NCBI GenBank assembly: GCA_017609985.1
Contig: JAFCCW010000009.1
Span: forward strand, 1-31,211
Direction: 5' to 3'
DNA from: Candidatus Iainarchaeum sp.
GTDB taxonomy: Archaea; Iainarchaeota; Iainarchaeia; Iainarchaeales; JAFCCW01
DNA: 31,211 nucleotides
The notes under the pieces were generated by a model that ran no database searches, was not told the DNA's origin, and saw nothing but the letters and a program-made list of their open reading frames with translations. Positions within the stretch are counted from its first letter, which is position 1. Each line of letters starts with the position of its first letter. Positions 203-21,958 of the stretch are shown piece by piece. The translations under genes and the position numbers were made by a program.

Positions 203-1477
203 ATGAAACAATTCAACGCAGATATGCATTTCCACGGACTGTACTCCGGCGGGGTAAGCAAGTTTATGAAGCTGGATGTCATAGCAGAGCAGGCAAGGCT
301 CAAAGGGCTTGATGTGATTGCAAGCTCGGACATACTGCACAAGGGCTGGTTTGAGCATGCAAAAAAAGAAATTATTGAAGATGGAAATGGATTGTTCAAG
401 CACAGAAAGCACGACACATTTATCATACTTCAGACAGAAGTAGAGTGCGATGACAGATTTCATCACTTGGTTTATTTTCCAGACTTTGCTTGTGCTGAAA
501 ACCTAAAAGAAAAATGGAAAGGAAAAGCAGTGTTTGACTCCTGGGGTTGCGGAAGACCACGTGTTAGAATGAGCGCAGAGAAGATTGCAGAAGAAGTTTT
601 TGATGCAGGGGGCTTAGTTGGGCCAGCTCATGCATTCACGCCATATTTTTCACCCTATGCACACTTTGATTCCGTGAAAAAAGCCTATGGACAAATGGGA
701 AAAAAAATTTCATTCATTGAACTTGGGTTAAGCGCTGATACATTCTTTGCAGACCAGATAAAAGAAAACCATGGCTATACTTTTTTGTCAAACAGCGACT
801 CGCACTCTCCCTGGCCTGTGCGAATTGGAAGAGAATTCAACAGAATCAAGATGAAAGAACCAAGCTTCAAAGAATTCAAACAAGCAATGGAAAGAAAGGG
901 AGAATCAAGAGTTGAAATGAATATTGGAATGGACCCAAGAGAAGGAAAATATCATTGCTCCGCCTGCAACCAGTGCTTTGAAAGACACTCCATGAAAGAA
1001 GCAGAGGAAAACAACTGGAGATGCTTGAACTGCGGTGGCATAGTAAAGAAAGGAGTTAGAGCAAGAATTGAAGAGCTTGCGGATTGTGAAGAAGGACAAC
1101 ACCCGGAGCACAGAGCAGAATACCTGCACACGATTCCGCTTGCAGAAATAATTGCAATTGCCCTGAATGTAAAGGGGGTTAACACGCAGAAAGTCCAGTG
1201 CGCCTGGAGAGACTTTGTGGACAGGTTTGACTCAGAAATAAACGTGCTTGTTGATGTTCCATTTCAAGAAATGCGAGAAGTGAATCAAGAAATTGCAGAA
1301 AAAGTCAACGCTTTCAGGCAAGGCTGGGTTCTTTACAAGCCAGGCGGAGGCGGAGAATATGGAGTGCCAATTATTTGCTCAAGCAAGGAAGAAACTGAAA
1401 AGAAAAGAAACGAGTTGGGGCAAGAACTAGAATGCAAAAGTTGTAATGCAGGACAAAAAAGATTGAAGGAATTTTGA
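203..1477 (+). CDS. Endonuclease Q / TIGR00375-family PHP-domain DNA repair nuclease
   Basis: DMHFH PHP motif, GPAHAFTP, ELGLSAD, SNSDSHSP, GREFN, GKYH plus Zn-finger cysteines (CNQC...CLNCG), GGGGEYG, and a C-terminal PIP-like QKRLKEF. Confidence 0.9.
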   Translation: MKQFNADMHFHGLYSGGVSKFMKLDVIAEQARLKGLDVIASSDILHKGWFEHAKKEIIEDGNGLFKHRKHDTFIILQTEVECDDRFHHLVYFPDFACAENLKEKWKGKAVFDSWGCGRPRVRMSAEKIAEEVFDAGGLVGPAHAFTPYFSPYAHFDSVKKAYGQMGKKISFIELGLSADTFFADQIKENHGYTFLSNSDSHSPWPVRIGREFNRIKMKEPSFKEFKQAMERKGESRVEMNIGMDPREGKYHCSACNQCFERHSMKEAEENNWRCLNCGGIVKKGVRARIEELADCEEGQHPEHRAEYLHTIPLAEIIAIALNVKGVNTQKVQCAWRDFVDRFDSEINVLVDVPFQEMREVNQEIAEKVNAFRQGWVLYKPGGGGEYGVPIICSSKEETEKKRNELGQELECKSCNAGQKRLKEF

Positions 1478-9211: not shown

Positions 9212-9934
9212 TCACAAAATCATGTGGGCAAGATAAAATGTTATAGAACTCTGACCAATAGGATAAGAAACCTTCATTGGAGAATCGCTCTTAATTTCAA
9301 GCTTTACTTTCTGGTCTGCATCAACCTCTTTTGCAATATTCTGTAAAAAATTAAGAGAATACTTGCCAACAACCTCTGCAGTGCTCTTAACCTTTACAAC
9401 CTTAGTCTGCTTTGCAGCAGTATTTAATGCACCTTGTGAACCACGCGCCTCAATTGAAAGCTGGCCATCCTTTACGCGCAAGACAACACTGCTTCCAAAC
9501 AAAGAAGCATCCTTTAAAGCCTCTTTAAGGATTCTTCCACCTATCTCAATTTCTGCATCAAAACTTGATTCCGGAAGCGAGACATCAGAGTCAGCAACAT
9601 CCATAAGAGGCAGGGAAAAAACTCGTTCAAGTTCGCCCTTAAAAGTAAGAATCATTTCTGAGTCAGTTAAGTCAAGCAATAACTTGTCTTTTGGAAGAGC
9701 TCGGTCAACAATCTTTGAAAGCTCCACAATGTCTATGCCAACAAAACTTGGCTCGATTTTGAAAGAATCAAAACTATTCTTTTCCATTAAGTAATCAACA
9801 AGAACAATCTGACTTGGGTCAATTGCCCGAAGAGAAATTCCCTTGTCATTAAAACGAAAGTTTCCCTCTGAAATAAAAGAGGAAATAGCAGAAATGCTTC
9901 TTCTCCATTCATCAACATTGTTTAATTCAATCAT
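9212..9934 (-). CDS. pcn: DNA sliding clamp PCNA, divergent paralogue
   Basis: LRAIDPSQIVLVD, FSLPLMD, LKEALKDASLF, KYSLNFL, PMKVSY, FYLAHMIL. 240 aa from ATG 9934. Confidence 0.9.
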   Translation of the reverse strand: MIELNNVDEWRRSISAISSFISEGNFRFNDKGISLRAIDPSQIVLVDYLMEKNSFDSFKIEPSFVGIDIVELSKIVDRALPKDKLLLDLTDSEMILTFKGELERVFSLPLMDVADSDVSLPESSFDAEIEIGGRILKEALKDASLFGSSVVLRVKDGQLSIEARGSQGALNTAAKQTKVVKVKSTAEVVGKYSLNFLQNIAKEVDADQKVKLEIKSDSPMKVSYPIGQSSITFYLAHMIL

Positions 9935-9962
9935 TGCAAAATAATAAGATGCATTAGTTATT

Positions 9963-10769
9963 TTAACTGTTTCTTGAAGCAAATGCAGCAGCGCCCACAG
10001 CACTGCCGAATCCAAAGTTTTTCGGAAACAATAATTCAACACCGTAATAGCCAGCTACTCTCTTCAGCTCTTTTCTGACAAATGAAAGAAGAGGAGTTTT
10101 TCCAATGAAAACAATTCTTTTTTGCGAAACAGAGCTGGCTGCAAAAACAGAGGCAACAGCAACAGACTCAGAAACAAGACGCGCTGTTGCTGCAGCAAGA
10201 TCCTGTTTTTTTCTGGAAGAAATTTTTGCAAAATTACTCGCAGTCGCATTTCCAGGAACAATGCCAATCCCAGAACCGATTGCTTCCCTGACTAATAAAT
10301 TAATTTTTTCAGGATTGCCCTTGCAAGCAAGAGAATTTATTTTTTCAGGAACCTGTGTTTCAATGAGAAGACTGGAAAGACCTGTTAGAGTTCCCCCTCC
10401 AATACCAGTACCCCCAATATGCAAATTTTTTCTTCCATTATGAAAAACAATGCAAGTGCCAGTACCCATAGAAACCACTGCACATTTTTTAAGATTGGAA
10501 AGCACTGCCCCTCCGAATCCGATTGCATCAATTTCGGAAACATGCGCTACTGGAATTCCCAAAAGAGAGGAAGAAATTTTTGAAGAATGACCGCCAGTGA
10601 CAGCAATCTTTTTTATTTTTGAAAGAGGGAAATTCAAATCAGGGCAGGAAATTTTTGATTCAATAGATTTGTTTGAAATTTTTGGAAAAGAAAAACTTTT
10701 CATAAGTTTTCCATTTGAAAAAAGAACAAAGTCAGTAGTGGTTGAACCAAAATCAATTCCAAGAATCAT
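9963..10769 (-). CDS. coaW: Type II pantothenate kinase (CoaW/Fumble-like, ASKHA fold)
   Basis: GIDFGSTTT, TGG, SEIDAIGFG, SMGTGT, GGTGIGGGTLTGL, ASNFAK, GAAAF; downstream of panC with a 4-bp overlap. Confidence 0.85.
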   Translation of the reverse strand: MILGIDFGSTTTDFVLFSNGKLMKSFSFPKISNKSIESKISCPDLNFPLSKIKKIAVTGGHSSKISSSLLGIPVAHVSEIDAIGFGGAVLSNLKKCAVVSMGTGTCIVFHNGRKNLHIGGTGIGGGTLTGLSSLLIETQVPEKINSLACKGNPEKINLLVREAIGSGIGIVPGNATASNFAKISSRKKQDLAAATARLVSESVAVASVFAASSVSQKRIVFIGKTPLLSFVRKELKRVAGYYGVELLFPKNFGFGSAVGAAAFASRNS

Positions 10770-11616: not shown

Positions 11617-12384
11617 TCACCTAAATGAATTTTTCTTTTTTGGAAACAAGGCTTTTTTTACATCAGAATCAAACTTCGAAGCAGAGTCTCCAGCAAGCTT
11701 TGAAAAATCAGAATATTTTTTTGCAAAACGCGGAGAGAAATCAGGATAAAGGCCAAGCAAATCATATGAAACAAGCACCTGCCCATCGCAAGAATTGCCG
11801 GCGCCGATTCCGATTGTTGGAATTGAAAGAGAGCAGGTTATTTCTTTTGCAAGAGAAGAAGGAATGCATTCAAGAACAAGAGCAAATGCTCCTGCTTGCT
11901 CAAGCTCGATTGCTGAAGAGACAATCTTTCTTGCCTCTTTCTCTGCTCTGCCCTTTACACAAAACTTTTTGAAAGACTGGGGAGTTAATCCAAGATGAGC
12001 AAGCACAGGAATCTTATTTTTGAGAAGAGCTCTAATGGAGATTGAAAGCGGACCTTCTGGCTTAACTGCTTTTGCCCCAGCACCCAAAAGTGAGTTTGCA
12101 TTCTTGACAGCTTTTGAAGGAGAAGAATAAGACTTGTAGGACAGGTCTGCAACAACAAATGATTTTGAGGTTCCTCTGGCCACAGCAGAAGTGTGACGAA
12201 GCATGTCAGCCATGGTTACAGAGCGAGTGTCCTTGTATCCGAGAACAGCCATTCCAAGAGAATCACCCACAAGAAAGCAGTCAACCTTGCCATCCATCGC
12301 CATGGCAAAGCTGTAATCATAGCAGGTGAGCATGGAAATCTTCTTTCCCTGCTTTTTGAAAGCCTTGAAATCAGAGAGTTTCAT
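11617..12384 (-). CDS. panB: 3-methyl-2-oxobutanoate hydroxymethyltransferase
   Basis: MLTCYDYSFA, LVGDSLGM, AHLGLTPQ, PTIGIGAG..CDGQVLV. True start is ATG 12384; the ORF-track extension is not homologous. Confidence 0.97.
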   Translation of the reverse strand: MKLSDFKAFKKQGKKISMLTCYDYSFAMAMDGKVDCFLVGDSLGMAVLGYKDTRSVTMADMLRHTSAVARGTSKSFVVADLSYKSYSSPSKAVKNANSLLGAGAKAVKPEGPLSISIRALLKNKIPVLAHLGLTPQSFKKFCVKGRAEKEARKIVSSAIELEQAGAFALVLECIPSSLAKEITCSLSIPTIGIGAGNSCDGQVLVSYDLLGLYPDFSPRFAKKYSDFSKLAGDSASKFDSDVKKALFPKKKNSFR

Positions 12385-12436
12385 TGCATATCTAATAGCA
12401 CGAAAAGCTTTTATTGCTCCACTCCAGAATACTATT

Positions 12437-13116
12437 GTGAGCAAAGCAGGAAGAAAAGAAATCAGAAAAGAACATTCTTCTCGGCTTCCGAGAAGAGGAA
12501 TGCAAAAGCTTGTTAGACAGTCAAGAGAAAGACGTGCTGAAAACCCAGGCCAAAGGCGTGTTAGCGAACCAAACCAGGCAACTGTAAGATTGTATTCCAA
12601 AAAAGAGAGCCATTTGAAATTATTATTGCGGGAAATCCAGTTCCAACCGGAAACAGAGTTGTTGACTCAGTAAGAACTCCTGAAATTGAAAGAAAAGGAG
12701 AAGTAGACTACGGAGGAGATGCATCAAAAGGACGTCTTGGACCAATAGCGCTGACTATGTCCACCCCGCCAGTAGTTGGTACACACGGCGTTCTGCCATT
12801 TCACGATATGAAGGAAGTATCTGAAACAATATGGATAGAATCAATCTCAGTTCCAGAGAGCTTACAGAACTCAGGAATTGGACGAAGAATGATGGGGAGA
12901 TTATTTCGCATAGCAAGAAGAAGAGGATATACAAGAATAAGGCTTAACTCAAGTGTAGATGTTCTAAGCTACAGGTTCTTTAAGAAAATGGGATTTCACA
13001 TGTACACTAAACCCGATAGAAACAGAGTAGTCGGAATGGAAAAACAGCTTAGACCTGCTCGCATGCAATCTAAAAATTACCGCCTTAGGGAAAAAATTGA
13101 AAAATATAATTATTAA
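12437..13116 (+). pseudogene. GNAT-family acetyltransferase (domain in ORF 12757-13116), probably the frameshifted 3' part of a longer gene starting at 12437 or 12500
   Basis: Motif A ISVPESLQNSGIGRRMM and YRFFKKMGF. The GNAT frame is open from 12565 and overlaps the upstream Arg-rich ORF across an A6 tract (12599-12604). Confidence 0.6.
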
Positions 13117-13156
13117 ATCTTCAAAAATAAGATTATTGAATCTTCAAACTTTAGAA

Positions 13157-13171
13157 TCAGTCGCTTTCGAT
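13157..13171 (-). repeat. Degenerate copy of the last five PCNA codons (ATC GAA AGC GAC TGA = IESD*)
   Basis: Reverse complement of tcagtcgctttcgat; directly abuts the 13172-13199 copy. Confidence 0.7.
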
Positions 13172-13172
13172 T

Positions 13173-13199
13173 TAATCACTTTCAATTCTCGGAGCAAGG
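13173..13199. repeat. 27-bp direct repeat, copy 1 (duplicate of the PCNA 3' end)
   Basis: taatcactttcaattctcggagcaagg, identical to 13925-13951. Confidence 0.95.
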
Positions 13200-13208
13200 G
13201 ACAGTTTG

Positions 13209-13236
13209 TTCTTACTTGTAAGAAAGTCTTATAAAT
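13209..13236 (+). promoter_or_regulatory. TA operon promoter: palindromic operator TTCTTAC-tt-GTAAGAA followed by BRE-like AGAAAG and TATA box TTATAAAT
   Basis: Perfect 7-bp inverted repeat at 13209-13224; TATA at 13229-13236, about 30 bp upstream of the ATG at 13265. Confidence 0.6.
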
Positions 13237-13264
13237 TGTTTTGGTGAATATTCTTATGGTTTTT

Positions 13265-13513
13265 ATGGAGCAGGTTATTGGAACTACAAGAATGTCAACA
13301 AAAGGACAGATAATAATCCCAAAAAAGACACGGGATTTTACTGAATCCAGAGAAGACACGATTTTTACTGTGTTTGCAGTGGACAGAAAAACCATTGTAT
13401 TGAAAAAGCTGAACACTAAAAAAATCATAAAAGAGTTTCGCGCCGTCAGAGAAAAAGTAAAGAACAAGGTCTCAGAGGGCGAAGCAAATGAAATTGTTCA
13501 CAAAGCACGATAG
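13265..13513 (+). CDS. AbrB/MazE/SpoVT-family DNA-binding protein (antitoxin)
   Basis: TTRMSTKGQIIIPKKTR swapped-hairpin signature; overlaps the PIN gene. Start 13265 or 13256. Confidence 0.88.
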   Translation: MEQVIGTTRMSTKGQIIIPKKTRDFTESREDTIFTVFAVDRKTIVLKKLNTKKIIKEFRAVREKVKNKVSEGEANEIVHKAR

Positions 13514-13922
13514 GACAAGAGTCGTGCTTGATACAAACATTATTATCTCTGCTTTAATTGCTAAAGAAGGAGCTCCGGCAAAAGTCTTTGAACAGCTCAT
13601 TCTAGGGGAATTTGAAAATTATACAAGCAATGGAATAATCCAGGAGCTCAAAGAAGTTCTTGAAAGAAAGGAAATCACAAAAAGAACAACCAGAAGAGCA
13701 AGACAATTCATATTCAAACACTATCTGAACAACTCAATACAAATAGCGCCAAAAACTAAAGTGTATGTTGTTGAGCACGAATCAGACAATAAATTCATCG
13801 AAGTGTGTTTGGAGGCAAACGCTGAATGCCTGATTAGTGGAGACAATCACTTGCTGAAATTAAAAGAATTTAAAGAAATCCAGATTCTAAGGGCAAAAGA
13901 GTTTATGGAAAAATTTCCCTAA
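13488..13922 (+). CDS. PIN-domain toxin (VapC-like, TIGR00305 type)
   Basis: VVLDTNIIISAL, EL.EVL.R, DNKFIEVC, ISGDNHLL. Confidence 0.92.
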   Translation: MKLFTKHDRTRVVLDTNIIISALIAKEGAPAKVFEQLILGEFENYTSNGIIQELKEVLERKEITKRTTRRARQFIFKHYLNNSIQIAPKTKVYVVEHESDNKFIEVCLEANAECLISGDNHLLKLKEFKEIQILRAKEFMEKFP

Positions 13923-13923
13923 C

Positions 13924-14670
13924 CTAATCACTTTCAATTCTCGGAGCAAGGAAATAGGTTATTTCTGCCCCACCGATTTTGTAAGAAAGTTTTACTGGAG
14001 CATTGCTCTTCATCTCAAGGCTTACCTCGTCTCCAGAAGAAGTTGCTTTCACCATATCCTGCAAATAGTCAAGCGGAAACATTGACTTGGTTTCAGACTT
14101 GACTTCAAGAGACTTAACAGACTTGTCTGATTTAAGTGTCTCACTGTTTACTGTGCCCTTGCTTGATTTAGCCTTTACATAAAAGCCCTCAGGGTCTGCT
14201 TCAAGAGAAACATGGTTTGTGATTAAGGCAGAATCCTTCAATGCATCCTGAAGAAGACCTGCTTGAAAAACCATGCTGGCATCAAACTCAATCTTTGGAT
14301 TTGGAATATCAGACGAAGAAATATCAATAACTGGCAAAGAAAAACTTCTTTTTGAAGAACCAATAAAAGAAACCTTGATAGAGCTCTTGTCATCTTCAAG
14401 AGACAATTCAAGAGCATCGCTTGCCTTTGCGCGAGACATAACCTGTGAAAGATAGGAAAGATCAAGACCAATTTTTGTTTCAGAGGAAACATCAAATTCC
14501 TTGAAAGAAGCTTTTGGAAGAGAAAAATCAACCATTGAAATCTGGCTGGGGTCAGTTGCCTTAATTGCCAGACCAGATTCATTCAAGACAAACTCTGCCT
14601 CATCAATCAGAACAGAAACAGCATCAATGCATCTTTTAAAATCAGATGCGTTTTCTAAAACAATTTTCAA
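13924..14670 (-). CDS. pcn: DNA sliding clamp PCNA (canonical copy)
   Basis: LIDEAEF, ATDPSQISMVD, FSLPVID, SMFPLDYL and canonical C-terminal YFLAPRIE; TTG start. Confidence 0.96.
   Translation of the reverse strand: MKIVLENASDFKRCIDAVSVLIDEAEFVLNESGLAIKATDPSQISMVDFSLPKASFKEFDVSSETKIGLDLSYLSQVMSRAKASDALELSLEDDKSSIKVSFIGSSKRSFSLPVIDISSSDIPNPKIEFDASMVFQAGLLQDALKDSALITNHVSLEADPEGFYVKAKSSKGTVNSETLKSDKSVKSLEVKSETKSMFPLDYLQDMVKATSSGDEVSLEMKSNAPVKLSYKIGGAEITYFLAPRIESD
13925..13951. repeat. 27-bp direct repeat, copy 2 (within the PCNA 3' end)
   Basis: Encodes LAPRIESD on the minus strand; identical to 13173-13199. Confidence 0.95.
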
Positions 14671-19950: not shown

Positions 19951-21885
19951 TTAAGAAACTGTTTTTGAAACAGAGTGTTTTGGAAGAGCTCTGAGAAGCT
20001 TTGAAAGACCAGAAAGAAGTTTTTTTCTCTTTGGAGACTTGTTAAAAGCAGACTCTAAAACATCTGAAAGAGAAGAAGCAGGAATAATCTTGATTTTTTT
20101 AAGCTCCTGTTTTGGCAAAACAATGTCTTCCCTGTTTGCTCTTGGAACAATAACCTCTTTGAAGCCGGCAGTTATTGCAGCCTGAACCTTGGAAGTTACT
20201 CCCCCGACTGGAAGCACTTCGCCCCTGACTGAAAGCGAACCAGTCATTGCAACATCCTGCCTTACAGGAATCTTTTCAATCGCAGATATTACTGCTGTCG
20301 CAACACTTACTGAAGCAGAGTCACCTTCAACTCCCTCATAGGTTTGAAGAAACTGAATGTGAAGGTCATGCTTGTAAATATCTTTTCCAGAAATATTCTT
20401 GATGATTGCAGAAACATTCTGAACAGCTTCCTTTGCAATTTTTCCAAGCTTTCCTGTCGCAATAAGCTTGCCTTCTGCTCTGCTTGCAGCAGGAGCAACC
20501 TCTGCTTCAATAGGCAAAATCATGCCAGCAGAACCATCTCCGGAAACAGCCAAGCCATTGACTCTTCCAATTGCACTGCCCTTGCTTACATAAACCTCGT
20601 ACTCTTTCTTGTTTTCAATGCTTTTATCAACCATCTGCTGTTCAAGAGTTCGAGAAGAAATCTTTGCCTGATAAACATCCTCTGGCATAACCATCTTGTT
20701 GCCTTTTTCCTTTGCAATATCCCCAGCAGCTCTGATTAAGCCACCAAGTTCCCTTAGCTTGAGAGTTAACCTGTGCTTTTTGTCAGCGCGCTTTCTTGCT
20801 TCAAAAATAATTGATTCAACAGCGCCAGGAGAAAAGTGAGGAATTTTTTCATCCTTCTTGACTTCCTGAGCAATAAACCTGACAATTTTTTTCCTATTCT
20901 CAGGAGTATCAGGCATGTCAATATTCATGTAAATTTCATAACCATAGCCTCTGATTCTGGAGCGAAGAGCAGGATGAACTTTTTCAAGATCCTGGTAATT
21001 TCCTGCTGCTACAAGAACAAAGTTGCAGGGAACAGGGTCAGTTCTAGTCATTGCGCCAGAAGACATTTCGCTCTGACCAGTTATAGAATATTTTTTTTCC
21101 TGCATTGCAGTAAGAAGCTCCTGCTGTGCTTTGGGAGAAAGAGTTGCAATCTCGTCAATGAACAGGACACCGCCAGAGGAACGATGAATCATTCCAGGCT
21201 CTACACGCAGGTGCGGAGGTGTTCCAAGACCACCAGACTGAAGAGGATCATGACGAACATCCCCAAGCAAGGCTCCGGCTCTAGCACCAGTTGCTTCAAT
21301 GAAAGGGGCAATCTTCTTTTTTGCATTATCAATCAAAAGCTTCGGAGTGCGATTAGTATCCTTTGCCTTCATCTGAGAACCAAGAGCAAAGGCAACAACA
21401 AAGAATCCGCCAAGGATAAGCATTGCTGCAAAAACAACATCAGGCATCCAGCCAAGAGACCAGACAATATAAGTAATAATAAACCATGCGAGCGGAAGAA
21501 GCATCACAACCATTCGAGAATTAGCCTGTTCCTTCTCTGACTCAATCCTCTGCTCATCAAGAATTTTTTTTCCCTGCCCTGCTGAAACAAGCTTTACTTT
21601 TGGGTTATTGGAATCAGCATCGTTTGGATAAATCAAAACATCTTTGAGCTTTTGAACAGGCAGGATTTCTGCCATGGCAAGGGCAAGCATGCTTTTTCCA
21701 GTGCCAGGCAAGCCAACAAGAAGAACATTTCGCTTTTGAGCAGCAGCCTTCTTGATTATTTCACAAGAATCCTCCTGTCCAATAACCTGATCAATGACTC
21801 GGTCAGAAACAGGAATTTCAGAAGTATCCTTAAAGACAGATGGCTTAAACTGCTTTTTTGGTTTTTGCTTTTTTGAAATAGGCAT
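19951..21885 (-). CDS. lonB: Archaeal membrane-anchored ATP-dependent Lon protease (LonB)
   Basis: [15 protein letters not shown], two TM helices, [22 protein letters not shown] catalytic Ser, PVGGVTSK. Confidence 0.97.
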
Positions 21886-21899
21886 GGAAAACGATTTGA

Positions 21900-21912
21900 T
21901 TTATATATAAAA
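21900..21912. promoter_or_regulatory. TATA element between divergent lonB and rnz
   Basis: tttatatataaaa in the 73-bp divergent intergenic gap. Confidence 0.4.
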
Positions 21913-21958
21913 AGAGTTTAAAAGTGTTGCTAGGGCAAATCTGTAAAAGGTAATCAAA

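Follow-up and report, generated by a model that had tools for sequence, protein, structure and literature searches.

The 31,211-nt stretch of DNA analyzed here (hereafter, the window) is the entire contig C17 of Candidatus Iainarchaeum sp. genome G000, an assembly of 1.16 Mb in 37 contigs that is 86.6% complete. Its pcn gene, which encodes PCNA paralogue 1, is followed by a small toxin-antitoxin (TA) cassette that separates the gene from a second copy of its own 3′ end. The pcn gene lies on the minus strand (13924..14670) and encodes 248 amino acids (aa) ending in the stop codon TAG, with matches to PCNA_N (9.8e-15) and PCNA_C (4.7e-10). The initial annotation of this DNA had claimed that the coding end of pcn is duplicated, and a repeat search combined with translation confirmed the claim: an exact direct repeat of 27 nt (100% identity) occurs at 13173-13199 and 13925-13951, with a spacing of 752 nt. 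Read on the minus strand, the repeat is C-CTT-GCT-CCG-AGA-ATT-GAA-AGT-GAT-TA, which translates to LAPRIESD, the last eight residues of pcn. Repeat copy 2 (13925..13951, minus strand) supplies the functional last 8 codons of the gene and the letters TA of its stop codon; the base that follows is G, giving TAG (13924-13926). After repeat copy 1 (13173..13199, minus strand), the displaced pcn end, the base is A, and a TAA stop codon (13172-13174) is completed at position 13172. Allowing up to 3 mismatches, the 27-mer is found in these 2 places only in the window, and two matches were recovered in none of 100 dinucleotide-preserving shuffles. The same 2 places are also its only occurrences in the 1.16-Mb genome. 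Orthologues of pcn are present in 41 of 41 genomes searched (best identity, 62%), the 40 others all being members of the same order, and the PCNA C terminus YFLAPRIE-x-x is kept across that order. A second PCNA paralogue is encoded on the same strand at 9212-10042, 4 kb from pcn; both paralogues are retained in 40 of the 41 genomes of the order searched, often as neighbors.

The DNA between the repeat copies (13200-13924, 725 nt) contains two open reading frames (ORFs) and nothing else coding. The upstream ORF (13265..13513, plus strand) encodes an 82-aa AbrB/SpoVT-like antitoxin, for which the start at 13265 was picked by alignment to 82-aa homologues, and it overlaps the toxin gene by 26 nt. 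The label of AbrB antitoxin given by the initial annotation is only partly upheld. The protein is similar to TIGR01439 (E = 5.2e-5), with a score of 22.9 bits that falls under the cut-off of 28.3; it has no Pfam match, PF04014 (MazE/SpoVT-AbrB) is matched by 2 of the 12 aligned homologues, and its sole match among PDB profiles is a weak one to an unnamed 92-aa protein (E = 0.0013). The downstream ORF (13488..13922, plus strand) encodes a 144-aa PIN_3 toxin (PF13470, 1.5e-20; TIGR00305, 3.8e-21), whose acidic residues D15, E53, D100, and D119 are invariant across 12 aligned sequences. Upstream of both genes lies a predicted promoter/operator (13210..13240, plus strand), which consists of the palindrome CTTAC-TT-GTAAG, a purine-rich stretch, and the TATA-like CTTATAAAT. 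With a PIN toxin and an overlapping operon behind a palindrome, the two genes form a predicted VapBC-like type II TA pair. ORF and domain searches bore out that only an operator/promoter and the two TA genes occupy the 725 bp, as well as the reported distance of 1 bp between the PIN and pcn stop codons (13920-13922 and 13924-13926, with base 13923 between them).

To delimit the inserted DNA, we compared the flanks of the 11 best PIN_3 loci. The motif TCTTACTTGTAAGAAA(A/G)TCTTATATA, which includes CTTAC-NN-GTAAG followed by a TATA-like box, is found upstream of all 11 homologous cassettes displayed, and we suggest that this block serves as an operator and an archaeal promoter. The likeness among the 11 loci begins at this upstream block and stops at the PIN stop codon; the flanks beyond are unrelated. 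In the window, the conserved unit begins at approximately 13210 and measures approximately 713 nt. The inserted DNA therefore comprises the TA transcription unit plus a 10-nt junction on the side of repeat copy 1 (13200..13209) and a 2-nt junction (cc, 13923-13924) between the PIN stop codon and repeat copy 2. A 15/16 match between 13216-13231 and 13979-13994 of pcn (encoding KLSYK) was considered as a longer pcn relic and rejected, because all 11 displayed cassettes share this motif as their conserved promoter/operator, and none of them lies on the pcn contig of its genome.

Homologues of the PIN_3 toxin (E ≤ 1e-8) are encoded in 49 of 196 genomes of the order, on non-pcn contigs and never beside pcn elsewhere. 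The closest PIN homologue is 72% identical (69% in genome G025), while the closest PCNA is 62% identical (58% to that of G025). That PIN identity exceeds PCNA identity, even though TA genes evolve fast, argues for horizontal spread. The G+C content of the cassette (35.4%, compared to 38.8% for the genome) is a weak signal. These data support the cassette being a discrete, foreign, horizontally moving unit without a recombinase. Repeats of 14 to 22 nt, of other sequence, bracket homologous TA cassettes at 3 of the 11 loci. Among individual loci of the family, one copy is bracketed by a 14-nt direct repeat that extends to 22 nt with 2 mismatches (L040 in G104, 1104/1949), and another by a 22-nt direct repeat that includes the PIN stop codon (L048, G013:C8, 180/1918). 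In G025 (L043, G025:C49, 1024-1180), a 17-nt exact copy of the 3′ end of tRNA-Ser is located 55 nt past that tRNA gene, and the promoter of a TA cassette starts approximately 30 nt beyond the copy. AbrB-like/PIN_3 cassettes also occur as an array with the palindromic GGCAATTGCC-GAAAATT between units (L041, G095:C10, at 200, 1128, and 1940; L045, G093).

Directly behind the displaced TAA, in frame and with no gap, the window carries ATC GAA AGC GAC TGA (13157..13171, minus strand), which reads IESD-stop and appears to be an older relic of a pcn end. It differs from the repeat at 4 positions; all four differences are transitions and all are silent (P = 0.011 for four random transition sites). 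The chance of finding IESD-stop at one given place is 3.9e-7. Across the genome in six frames, approximately 0.9 such strings are expected, and this relic is the only one besides the two repeat copies. Further relics were sought in the interval between the GNAT acetyltransferase frame and panB (12370-12770) and in 13117-13172, where local alignment scores fell inside the shuffled null. The GNAT frame itself (12562-13116, plus strand) is open from approximately 12562, with no ATG, GTG, or TTG before 12757, and in the relative G015 panB is found 48 nt after pcn without GNAT; GNAT may have been inserted at this spot earlier and may now be decaying. Across the GNAT stop codon (13092-13137) runs a tandem repeat of 23 nt (78% identical), with an AATCTT...AAGATT hairpin just downstream. 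The window has no Rfam family matches and no tRNA genes.

If the end of pcn is a target of such cassettes, other genomes should carry comparable duplications. Of 196 genomes of the order, 157 contain a match to LAPRIE-encoding DNA; a reversed-pattern control yielded 5 matches in total. Second copies were sought among the matches listed (150 of 182), and five genomes with two matches, along with three of 19 additional genomes of the class, were queried again. Among the matches listed, second LAPRIE copies near pcn were found in G111 and G013. An approximate search for each genome's own pcn end in the ~8 kb downstream of pcn covered 120 further genomes, 101 of which had at least 3 kb of sequence there, and added G125; of the 18 genomes in family f30, 17 lay outside this search, as did a few from elsewhere. 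At 19 pcn loci with 1.5 kb of downstream sequence, no pcn-end copy was found.

In G125, the repeat is 19 nt, exact and inclusive of TAA (28/34 when extended), with a spacing of 575 nt, and the DNA between the copies encodes HicB (PF15919, 1.3e-7) and HicA (PF07927, 2.8e-15). The displaced stop codon is 2 nt from the stop codon of a convergent 114-aa gene, which is followed by rpiB and the second PCNA gene, the synteny of other genomes. Because the displaced copy adjoins the ancestral neighbor, it is the pcn-joined copy that came in with the cargo. Genomes G124, G127, and G129 of the same genus are without the HicBA cassette (their blastn identity to G125 is only 67 to 77%). By analogy with G125, the displaced copy in the window (13173..13199) is probably the original host end. 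In G111, the repeat is 33 nt inclusive of TAA (32/33 identical, the mismatch being silent) with a spacing of 2335 nt, and the ~2.3-kb cargo consists of a GT2-like 210-aa gene and a 502-aa gene of no family. The G+C content of this cargo is 38.8%, against 52.5% for pcn, and a UPF0175/PIN pair lies in further low-GC DNA between the displaced copy and the end of the contig. In G013, no repeat encloses a cargo. Instead, the pcn end (LAPRIEGD-stop) is followed after 1 nt by the relic LAPRIEHG-stop and then by a partial third LAP. This relic has 4 differences in the 18 nt that encode LAPRIE, yet the peptide is kept (P ~0.003 for four random changes).

All of these repeats stop at the pcn stop codon (within 1 nt) and start 6 to 10 codons upstream, which is the extent of the conserved C-terminal block. 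The cargo, in contrast, ranges from 0.55 to 2.3 kb and includes two unrelated TA families, glycosyltransferase genes, or nothing at all. Since the cargo differs while the site and geometry remain constant, we conclude that the moving process is independent of the cargo and tied to the end of pcn. The prediction of a recurrent target thus holds in three further genomes of the order, with other cargo or none, and the proposed comparison of related pcn loci did reveal different cargo between the repeats (HicBA in G125, glycosyltransferase cargo in G111). Taken together, the repeat, the intact pcn, and the three independent counterparts in G125, G111, and G013 support the central claim of the initial annotation, that a TA mini-cassette without an integrase sits in and restores the 3′ end of pcn, a recurrent target.

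Several other matches were not counted. LAPRIE matches in G087, G175, and G012 are inside other genes or frames, those in G097 and G109 belong to another conserved protein, and those in G023 and G047 are uncertain. The approximate matches in G020 (L162, 5 mismatches in 24) and in G090 and G029 (inside other genes, with weak nucleotide similarity) were discarded as chance. Two identical pcn ends on two contigs of G197 (L054/L055; C49, C69) were rejected as a duplication, being strain variants; one of the variants has a ~2-kb cassette with a DNA methyltransferase gene and a 402-aa gene approximately 250 nt downstream of pcn. The pcn end may be prone to assembly breaks, of which there are three instances: in G087 a run of 100 N directly follows the last pcn codon (L031, G087:C15, 3008-3107), and in G150 and G152 the contig stops 47 and 33 nt, respectively, past the pcn stop codon.

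We tentatively propose, at a probability that we place somewhat short of even, that a foreign cassette with its own copy of the pcn end joined the resident gene end by Campbell-type recombination. A self-contained type II TA unit (promoter/operator, AbrB-like antitoxin, and PIN_3 toxin; ~713 nt) would enter the cell with its own last ~27 nt of pcn, and one reciprocal crossover would take place between the incoming pcn-end copy and the resident gene end. The body of pcn would thereby be joined to the incoming end (...GAT TAG), and the resident end (...GAT TAA) would be displaced to the far side of the cargo, leaving the essential gene intact and the cargo bracketed by direct repeats. The recombining segment would be the conserved PCNA C-terminal block (YFLAPRIE-x-x-stop), in the role that a tRNA 3′ end has for classical integrative elements. 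Because the cassette has no recombinase, the crossover would fall either to a trans-acting recombinase or to homologous recombination by the host across a short stretch of homology (~20 to 30 nt). Recombination between the two repeats could then free a circle, which could integrate anew in another host whose pcn end matches. The circular intermediate, the enzyme, and the choice of which window copy is the incoming one are things that we infer from this scheme. Under it, the empty site would read pcn...GAT-TAA + ATCGAAAGC, and the 752-nt circle or tandem junction would read ...acaaactgtc-27-mer-ggttaggg.... The relics in G013 and at 13157-13171 speak to the source of the incoming DNA: since their divergence preserves coding, at least some of the incoming DNA carried a pcn end whose past evolution was that of a functional gene end elsewhere, an outcome that neither simple target duplication nor in-place decay of a duplicate predicts. 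We also considered a more ambitious version, in which the conserved last ~30 nt of pcn are, in Iainarchaeales-like DPANN archaea, a dedicated capture site for small, cargo-agnostic, promoter-bearing circles with pcn-end mimics. A putative recombinase, perhaps the non-Xer tyrosine integrases of every affected genome, would insert such circles at this site and exchange them there, and the cargo would include TA pairs and surface-glycan genes. We hold this version to be doubtful; if it were true, the site would be an integron-like platform without attC hairpins, whose "attI" is the end of an essential replication gene.

In looking for the machinery behind such a crossover, we found no recombinase genes in the cargo of G000, G125, or G111. 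The genome search for recombinases that the initial annotation had proposed recovered, in G000, one XerA-like gene and two paralogous non-Xer tyrosine integrases (44% identical; C35 and C37), both of which run off contig ends. Serine recombinases, Cas1 (PF01867), TniQ (PF06527), and rve (PF00665) had no match in the 86.6%-complete genome. Non-Xer integrases are also encoded in G125, G111, and G013; G127, which has an empty site, has only the Xer-like gene, and G124 has one or two. No third copy of the 27-mer that could mark a helper element was found in the 86.6%-complete genome, and the C35 and C37 integrase genes are cut by contig ends, which hides their att sites. The suggestion of a non-autonomous cassette mobilized in trans stands as to the lack of a recombinase in the cassette; as to a helper, the two non-Xer integrases have no link to the 27-mer. 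The pcn ends of G000, G125, and G111 lack the dif-like palindromy (two inverted arms of about 11 nt around a short spacer) of an Xer-dependent, IMEX-like element: the best pairing of 11-nt arms is 6 to 7 of 11, and shuffles behave alike (0.59 to 0.97 of them reach it). None of the 25 listed of 26 inverted pairs joins the ends of the cassette. G000 has 42 exact repeat pairs of at least 20 nt, and the 5 repeat regions inspected yielded no other cassette with a protein-gene end on both sides. The inspected pairs on C35 are C/D-box-like or tRNA-like RNA paralogues, and those on C25 and C27 are tRNA genes. One C35 pair (21170-21225 and 21870-21925, with a shared 25-nt stretch) we take, from its motifs, to be C/D-box-like small RNA paralogues. 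Elsewhere in the genome, C11 630-10891 looks like an integrated element: next to an N-terminal fragment of a C35/C37-family integrase (709..933) are two repeats, one of 20 nt (630 and 10872) and one of 39 nt (8681 and 10849).

We also searched for free forms and close relatives of the cassette. Metagenome scans with PCNA and PIN queries returned no close relative, and the PIN search of genome contigs returned nothing above 72% identity. The exact 27-mer had no match in viral contigs, where the PIN profile matched only proteins that are 24 to 29% identical. Two sequencing runs had any content, in small shares (0.07 and 0.05). The first (X1) yielded short contigs, the longest with 5 to 17 differing letters over 153 to 197 nt, which lie on pcn only from 13954 rightwards. 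The second (X2), a sludge metagenome, yielded a 195-nt contig with 5 differences on 13431-13625, the antitoxin/toxin junction, and none on pcn. No contig of either run bridges either junction; the data are sparse, and nothing follows from them on excision, habitat, or assembly.

A number of observations weigh against the proposed Campbell-type recombination. In the metagenome scans, the viral contigs, and the two sparse runs, neither a free or circular cassette nor an empty allele nor a read across a junction came to light. Duplicated pcn ends are rare (4 genomes out of ~157 with a recognizable pcn end). At 91 other PIN_3 loci (423 kb), no pcn-end segment lies beside the TA unit, save one chance-like match, so the TA family is not a dedicated pcn-targeting element. 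In tblastn searches of the ~8 kb downstream of pcn in 122 loci, we found no homologues of the three tyrosine recombinases of G000, and the integrase link amounts to no more than a co-occurrence in a handful of genomes (five). Conserved arm sequences beside the repeats of the three cargo cases are not visible by eye. Finally, the cargo-bearing repeats are identical or nearly so, which fits a plain duplication of the host target too.

That last observation leads to the main rival, an insertion with long target duplication, which we regard as possible but well short of probable. Here, a TA unit without any pcn segment would have been inserted in the pcn stop codon by an illegitimate, break-repair, or template-switch event, with 27 nt of the host copied on both sides. 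The identity of the repeats around the cargo (27/27, 32/33, and 19/19), the lack of a recombinase in cis and of arm-like sequences, and the restriction of extra DNA to 10 + 2 nt all agree with such an event, as do the 14- to 22-nt repeats of other sequence around homologous TA cassettes at 3 of 11 loci. In the text covered here, Furuta 2010 (PMC2853133) documents the process for other post-segregational-killing units, with repeats often across the stop site. It is the regularity of the pcn cases that this rival does not account for: none of the three cargo-bearing repeats ends more than 1 nt from the stop codon, although a longer duplication would be allowed, and every repeat starts 6 to 10 codons upstream of it. 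Recurrence at one gene end in four families would not be expected of random insertion, and the relics of G013 and of 13157-13171, which differ only in coding-preserving ways, would not be expected from decay in place. Such relics, including their cargo-less tandem arrangement abutting the stop codon in G013 and at 13157-13171, would be accounted for by homology-facilitated illegitimate recombination with linear DNA of a relative, consisting of the 3′ part of pcn and the TA unit behind it. Such a donor would have recombined by homology within pcn, and its far end would have been joined illegitimately 27 nt before the resident stop codon, so that the resident end was left as a relic. This scenario would also explain the foreign-looking pcn ends and the lack of a recombinase. 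We nevertheless consider it improbable: it needs donors with a repeat-free cargo after pcn, and a TA homologue lies downstream in 0 of 120 surveyed loci save the repeat-flanked one of G125. It also predicts relics of any length, and all five relics are 15 to 34 nt.

The initial annotation had alternatively viewed the cassette as the addiction-stabilized remnant of a larger element. In this reading as we framed it, an integrase-bearing element would have entered the pcn end site-specifically and then lost all but the TA pair. TA modules resist loss, and in G111 further low-GC DNA with the UPF0175/PIN pair lies past the displaced copy. The att-like repeats and the restored gene end also recall those of archaeal integrated mobile genetic elements (Krupovic 2019, PMC6563490), as these are described in the text covered. 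Yet all but 10 + 2 nt of the DNA between the repeats belongs to the TA unit, so that a deletion would have had to halt 10 nt short of the repeat at one end and precisely at the upstream border of the conserved TA promoter at the other. Trimming of this near-perfect kind would be needed a second time, independently, in G125, where HicBA is equally compact, and no integrase-bearing occupant of the site is seen among 122 loci. These findings disfavor the remnant, which we rate as quite improbable. Least credible, in our judgment, is an assembly artifact or chimera in which a shared 27-mer caused the TA segment to be looped into the contig. The fragmented state of the assembly (37 contigs, 86.6% complete) and the lack of spanning reads from the source sample speak for it, but the independent assemblies of G125 and G111 show the same architecture, a graph loop could arise only from a TA molecule with the 27-mer at its ends, the two repeat copies lead into different stop codons (TAG and TAA), and the relic at 13157-13171 is in keeping with a real history.

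Movement of genes without mobility functions (TA pairs, defense, and surface genes) between the tiny genomes of DPANN archaea is a poorly known field. The window and its three counterparts provide a repeatable footprint of it, in which the last 6 to 10 codons of PCNA are duplicated around small self-sufficient cassettes, and the relics indicate that foreign copies of the gene end arrived with the DNA. If site-specific or short-homology capture is the true explanation, the idea of insertion with long target duplication would extend to archaea and to TA modules, a testable substrate of 27 to 33 nt would be named, and a replication gene would be added to the conserved integration targets. If the events reflect only sporadic illegitimate recombination, the locus is still a clean example of an essential gene surviving an insertion into its own coding end. 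We found no literature on the PCNA gene as a target of prokaryotic integration, with the caveat that the supplementary tables of PMC6563490 and PMC2853133, which were not covered, may list more targets. Judged from search records, the literature on mobile elements of DPANN archaea and Iainarchaeota and on repeat-flanked TA cassettes holds no description of pcn-end cassettes.

Among known systems, insertion with long target duplication was reportedly described for restriction-modification gene units by Nobusato et al. in 2000. According to the text covered of Furuta 2010 (PMC2853133), bacterial restriction-modification units are bracketed by target duplications; these often extend across a stop site, and no mechanism is known for them. 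The repeats range from more than 30 bp to hundreds of bp at varied sites, and no archaeal case survived the authors' screen (PMC2853133, same text). As far as that text goes, the likeness to our cases is close: in both, a small post-segregational killing unit that lacks a transposase or integrase lies between direct copies of its target, and the target gene survives. Here, however, the hosts are DPANN archaea and the cargo consists of TA pairs or glycosyltransferase genes. The repeats measure 19 to 33 nt and in every case comprise the final codons of one and the same gene up to its stop codon, and some relics are foreign-looking. At 27 nt, the window repeat is below the 30-bp criterion stated in the covered text of Furuta 2010 (PMC2853133).

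Integration into gene ends is likewise established in archaea. In the text covered of PMC6563490, 14 of 68 thaumarchaeal elements have integrated into the 3′-distal part of a protein gene, to which they contribute a new stop codon. They span kilobases and encode an integrase or Cas1; the targets include EF-2, an AsnC regulator, dihydroxy-acid dehydratase, and others, with PCNA unmentioned in the same text. Judged from that text, the shared features are att-like repeats derived from a protein-gene end, the supply of a substitute end with its stop codon, and arrays that arise when one site is used again. Our cases have direct repeats of the target 3′ end with the gene restored, but no integrase between the repeats and a cargo of only 0.55 to 2.3 kb. 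Casposons at the EF-2 gene end offer a similar combination of an essential gene 3′ end as a target, target duplication, and tandem re-use (PMC6563490, section 8, as covered). The resemblance to casposons that the initial annotation had noted does not carry further: casposons have Cas1 and terminal inverted repeats, whereas the genome has no Cas1 and no inverted repeat among the 25 listed pairs joins the cassette ends. Unlike for Tn7-like transposons at a conserved gene end, no TniQ/TnsD or DDE transposase match exists in the G000 genome.

Two further systems move cargo without a recombinase of its own. The cis-mobilizable elements of streptococci are non-autonomous, are flanked by the attL and attR of an integrative element, have no recombination genes, and are thought to be moved by a helper integrase. 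They share att sites with a known helper integrative and conjugative element at the locus, whereas no helper that uses the pcn end was found here (in the genome itself and at 122 pcn loci). Integron cassettes are small and cargo-agnostic, often hold TA pairs, and are serially inserted at one platform by a recombinase encoded elsewhere; they have a folded attC of 60 to 140 nt and usually no promoter. The window cassette, in contrast, has its own predicted promoter and spare DNA of 2 + 10 nt, which leaves no room for an attC, and no integron integrase was identified. Overall, the closest known kinds are insertion with long target duplication and archaeal gene-end integration, and the cassettes at the end of pcn form no new category beside them.

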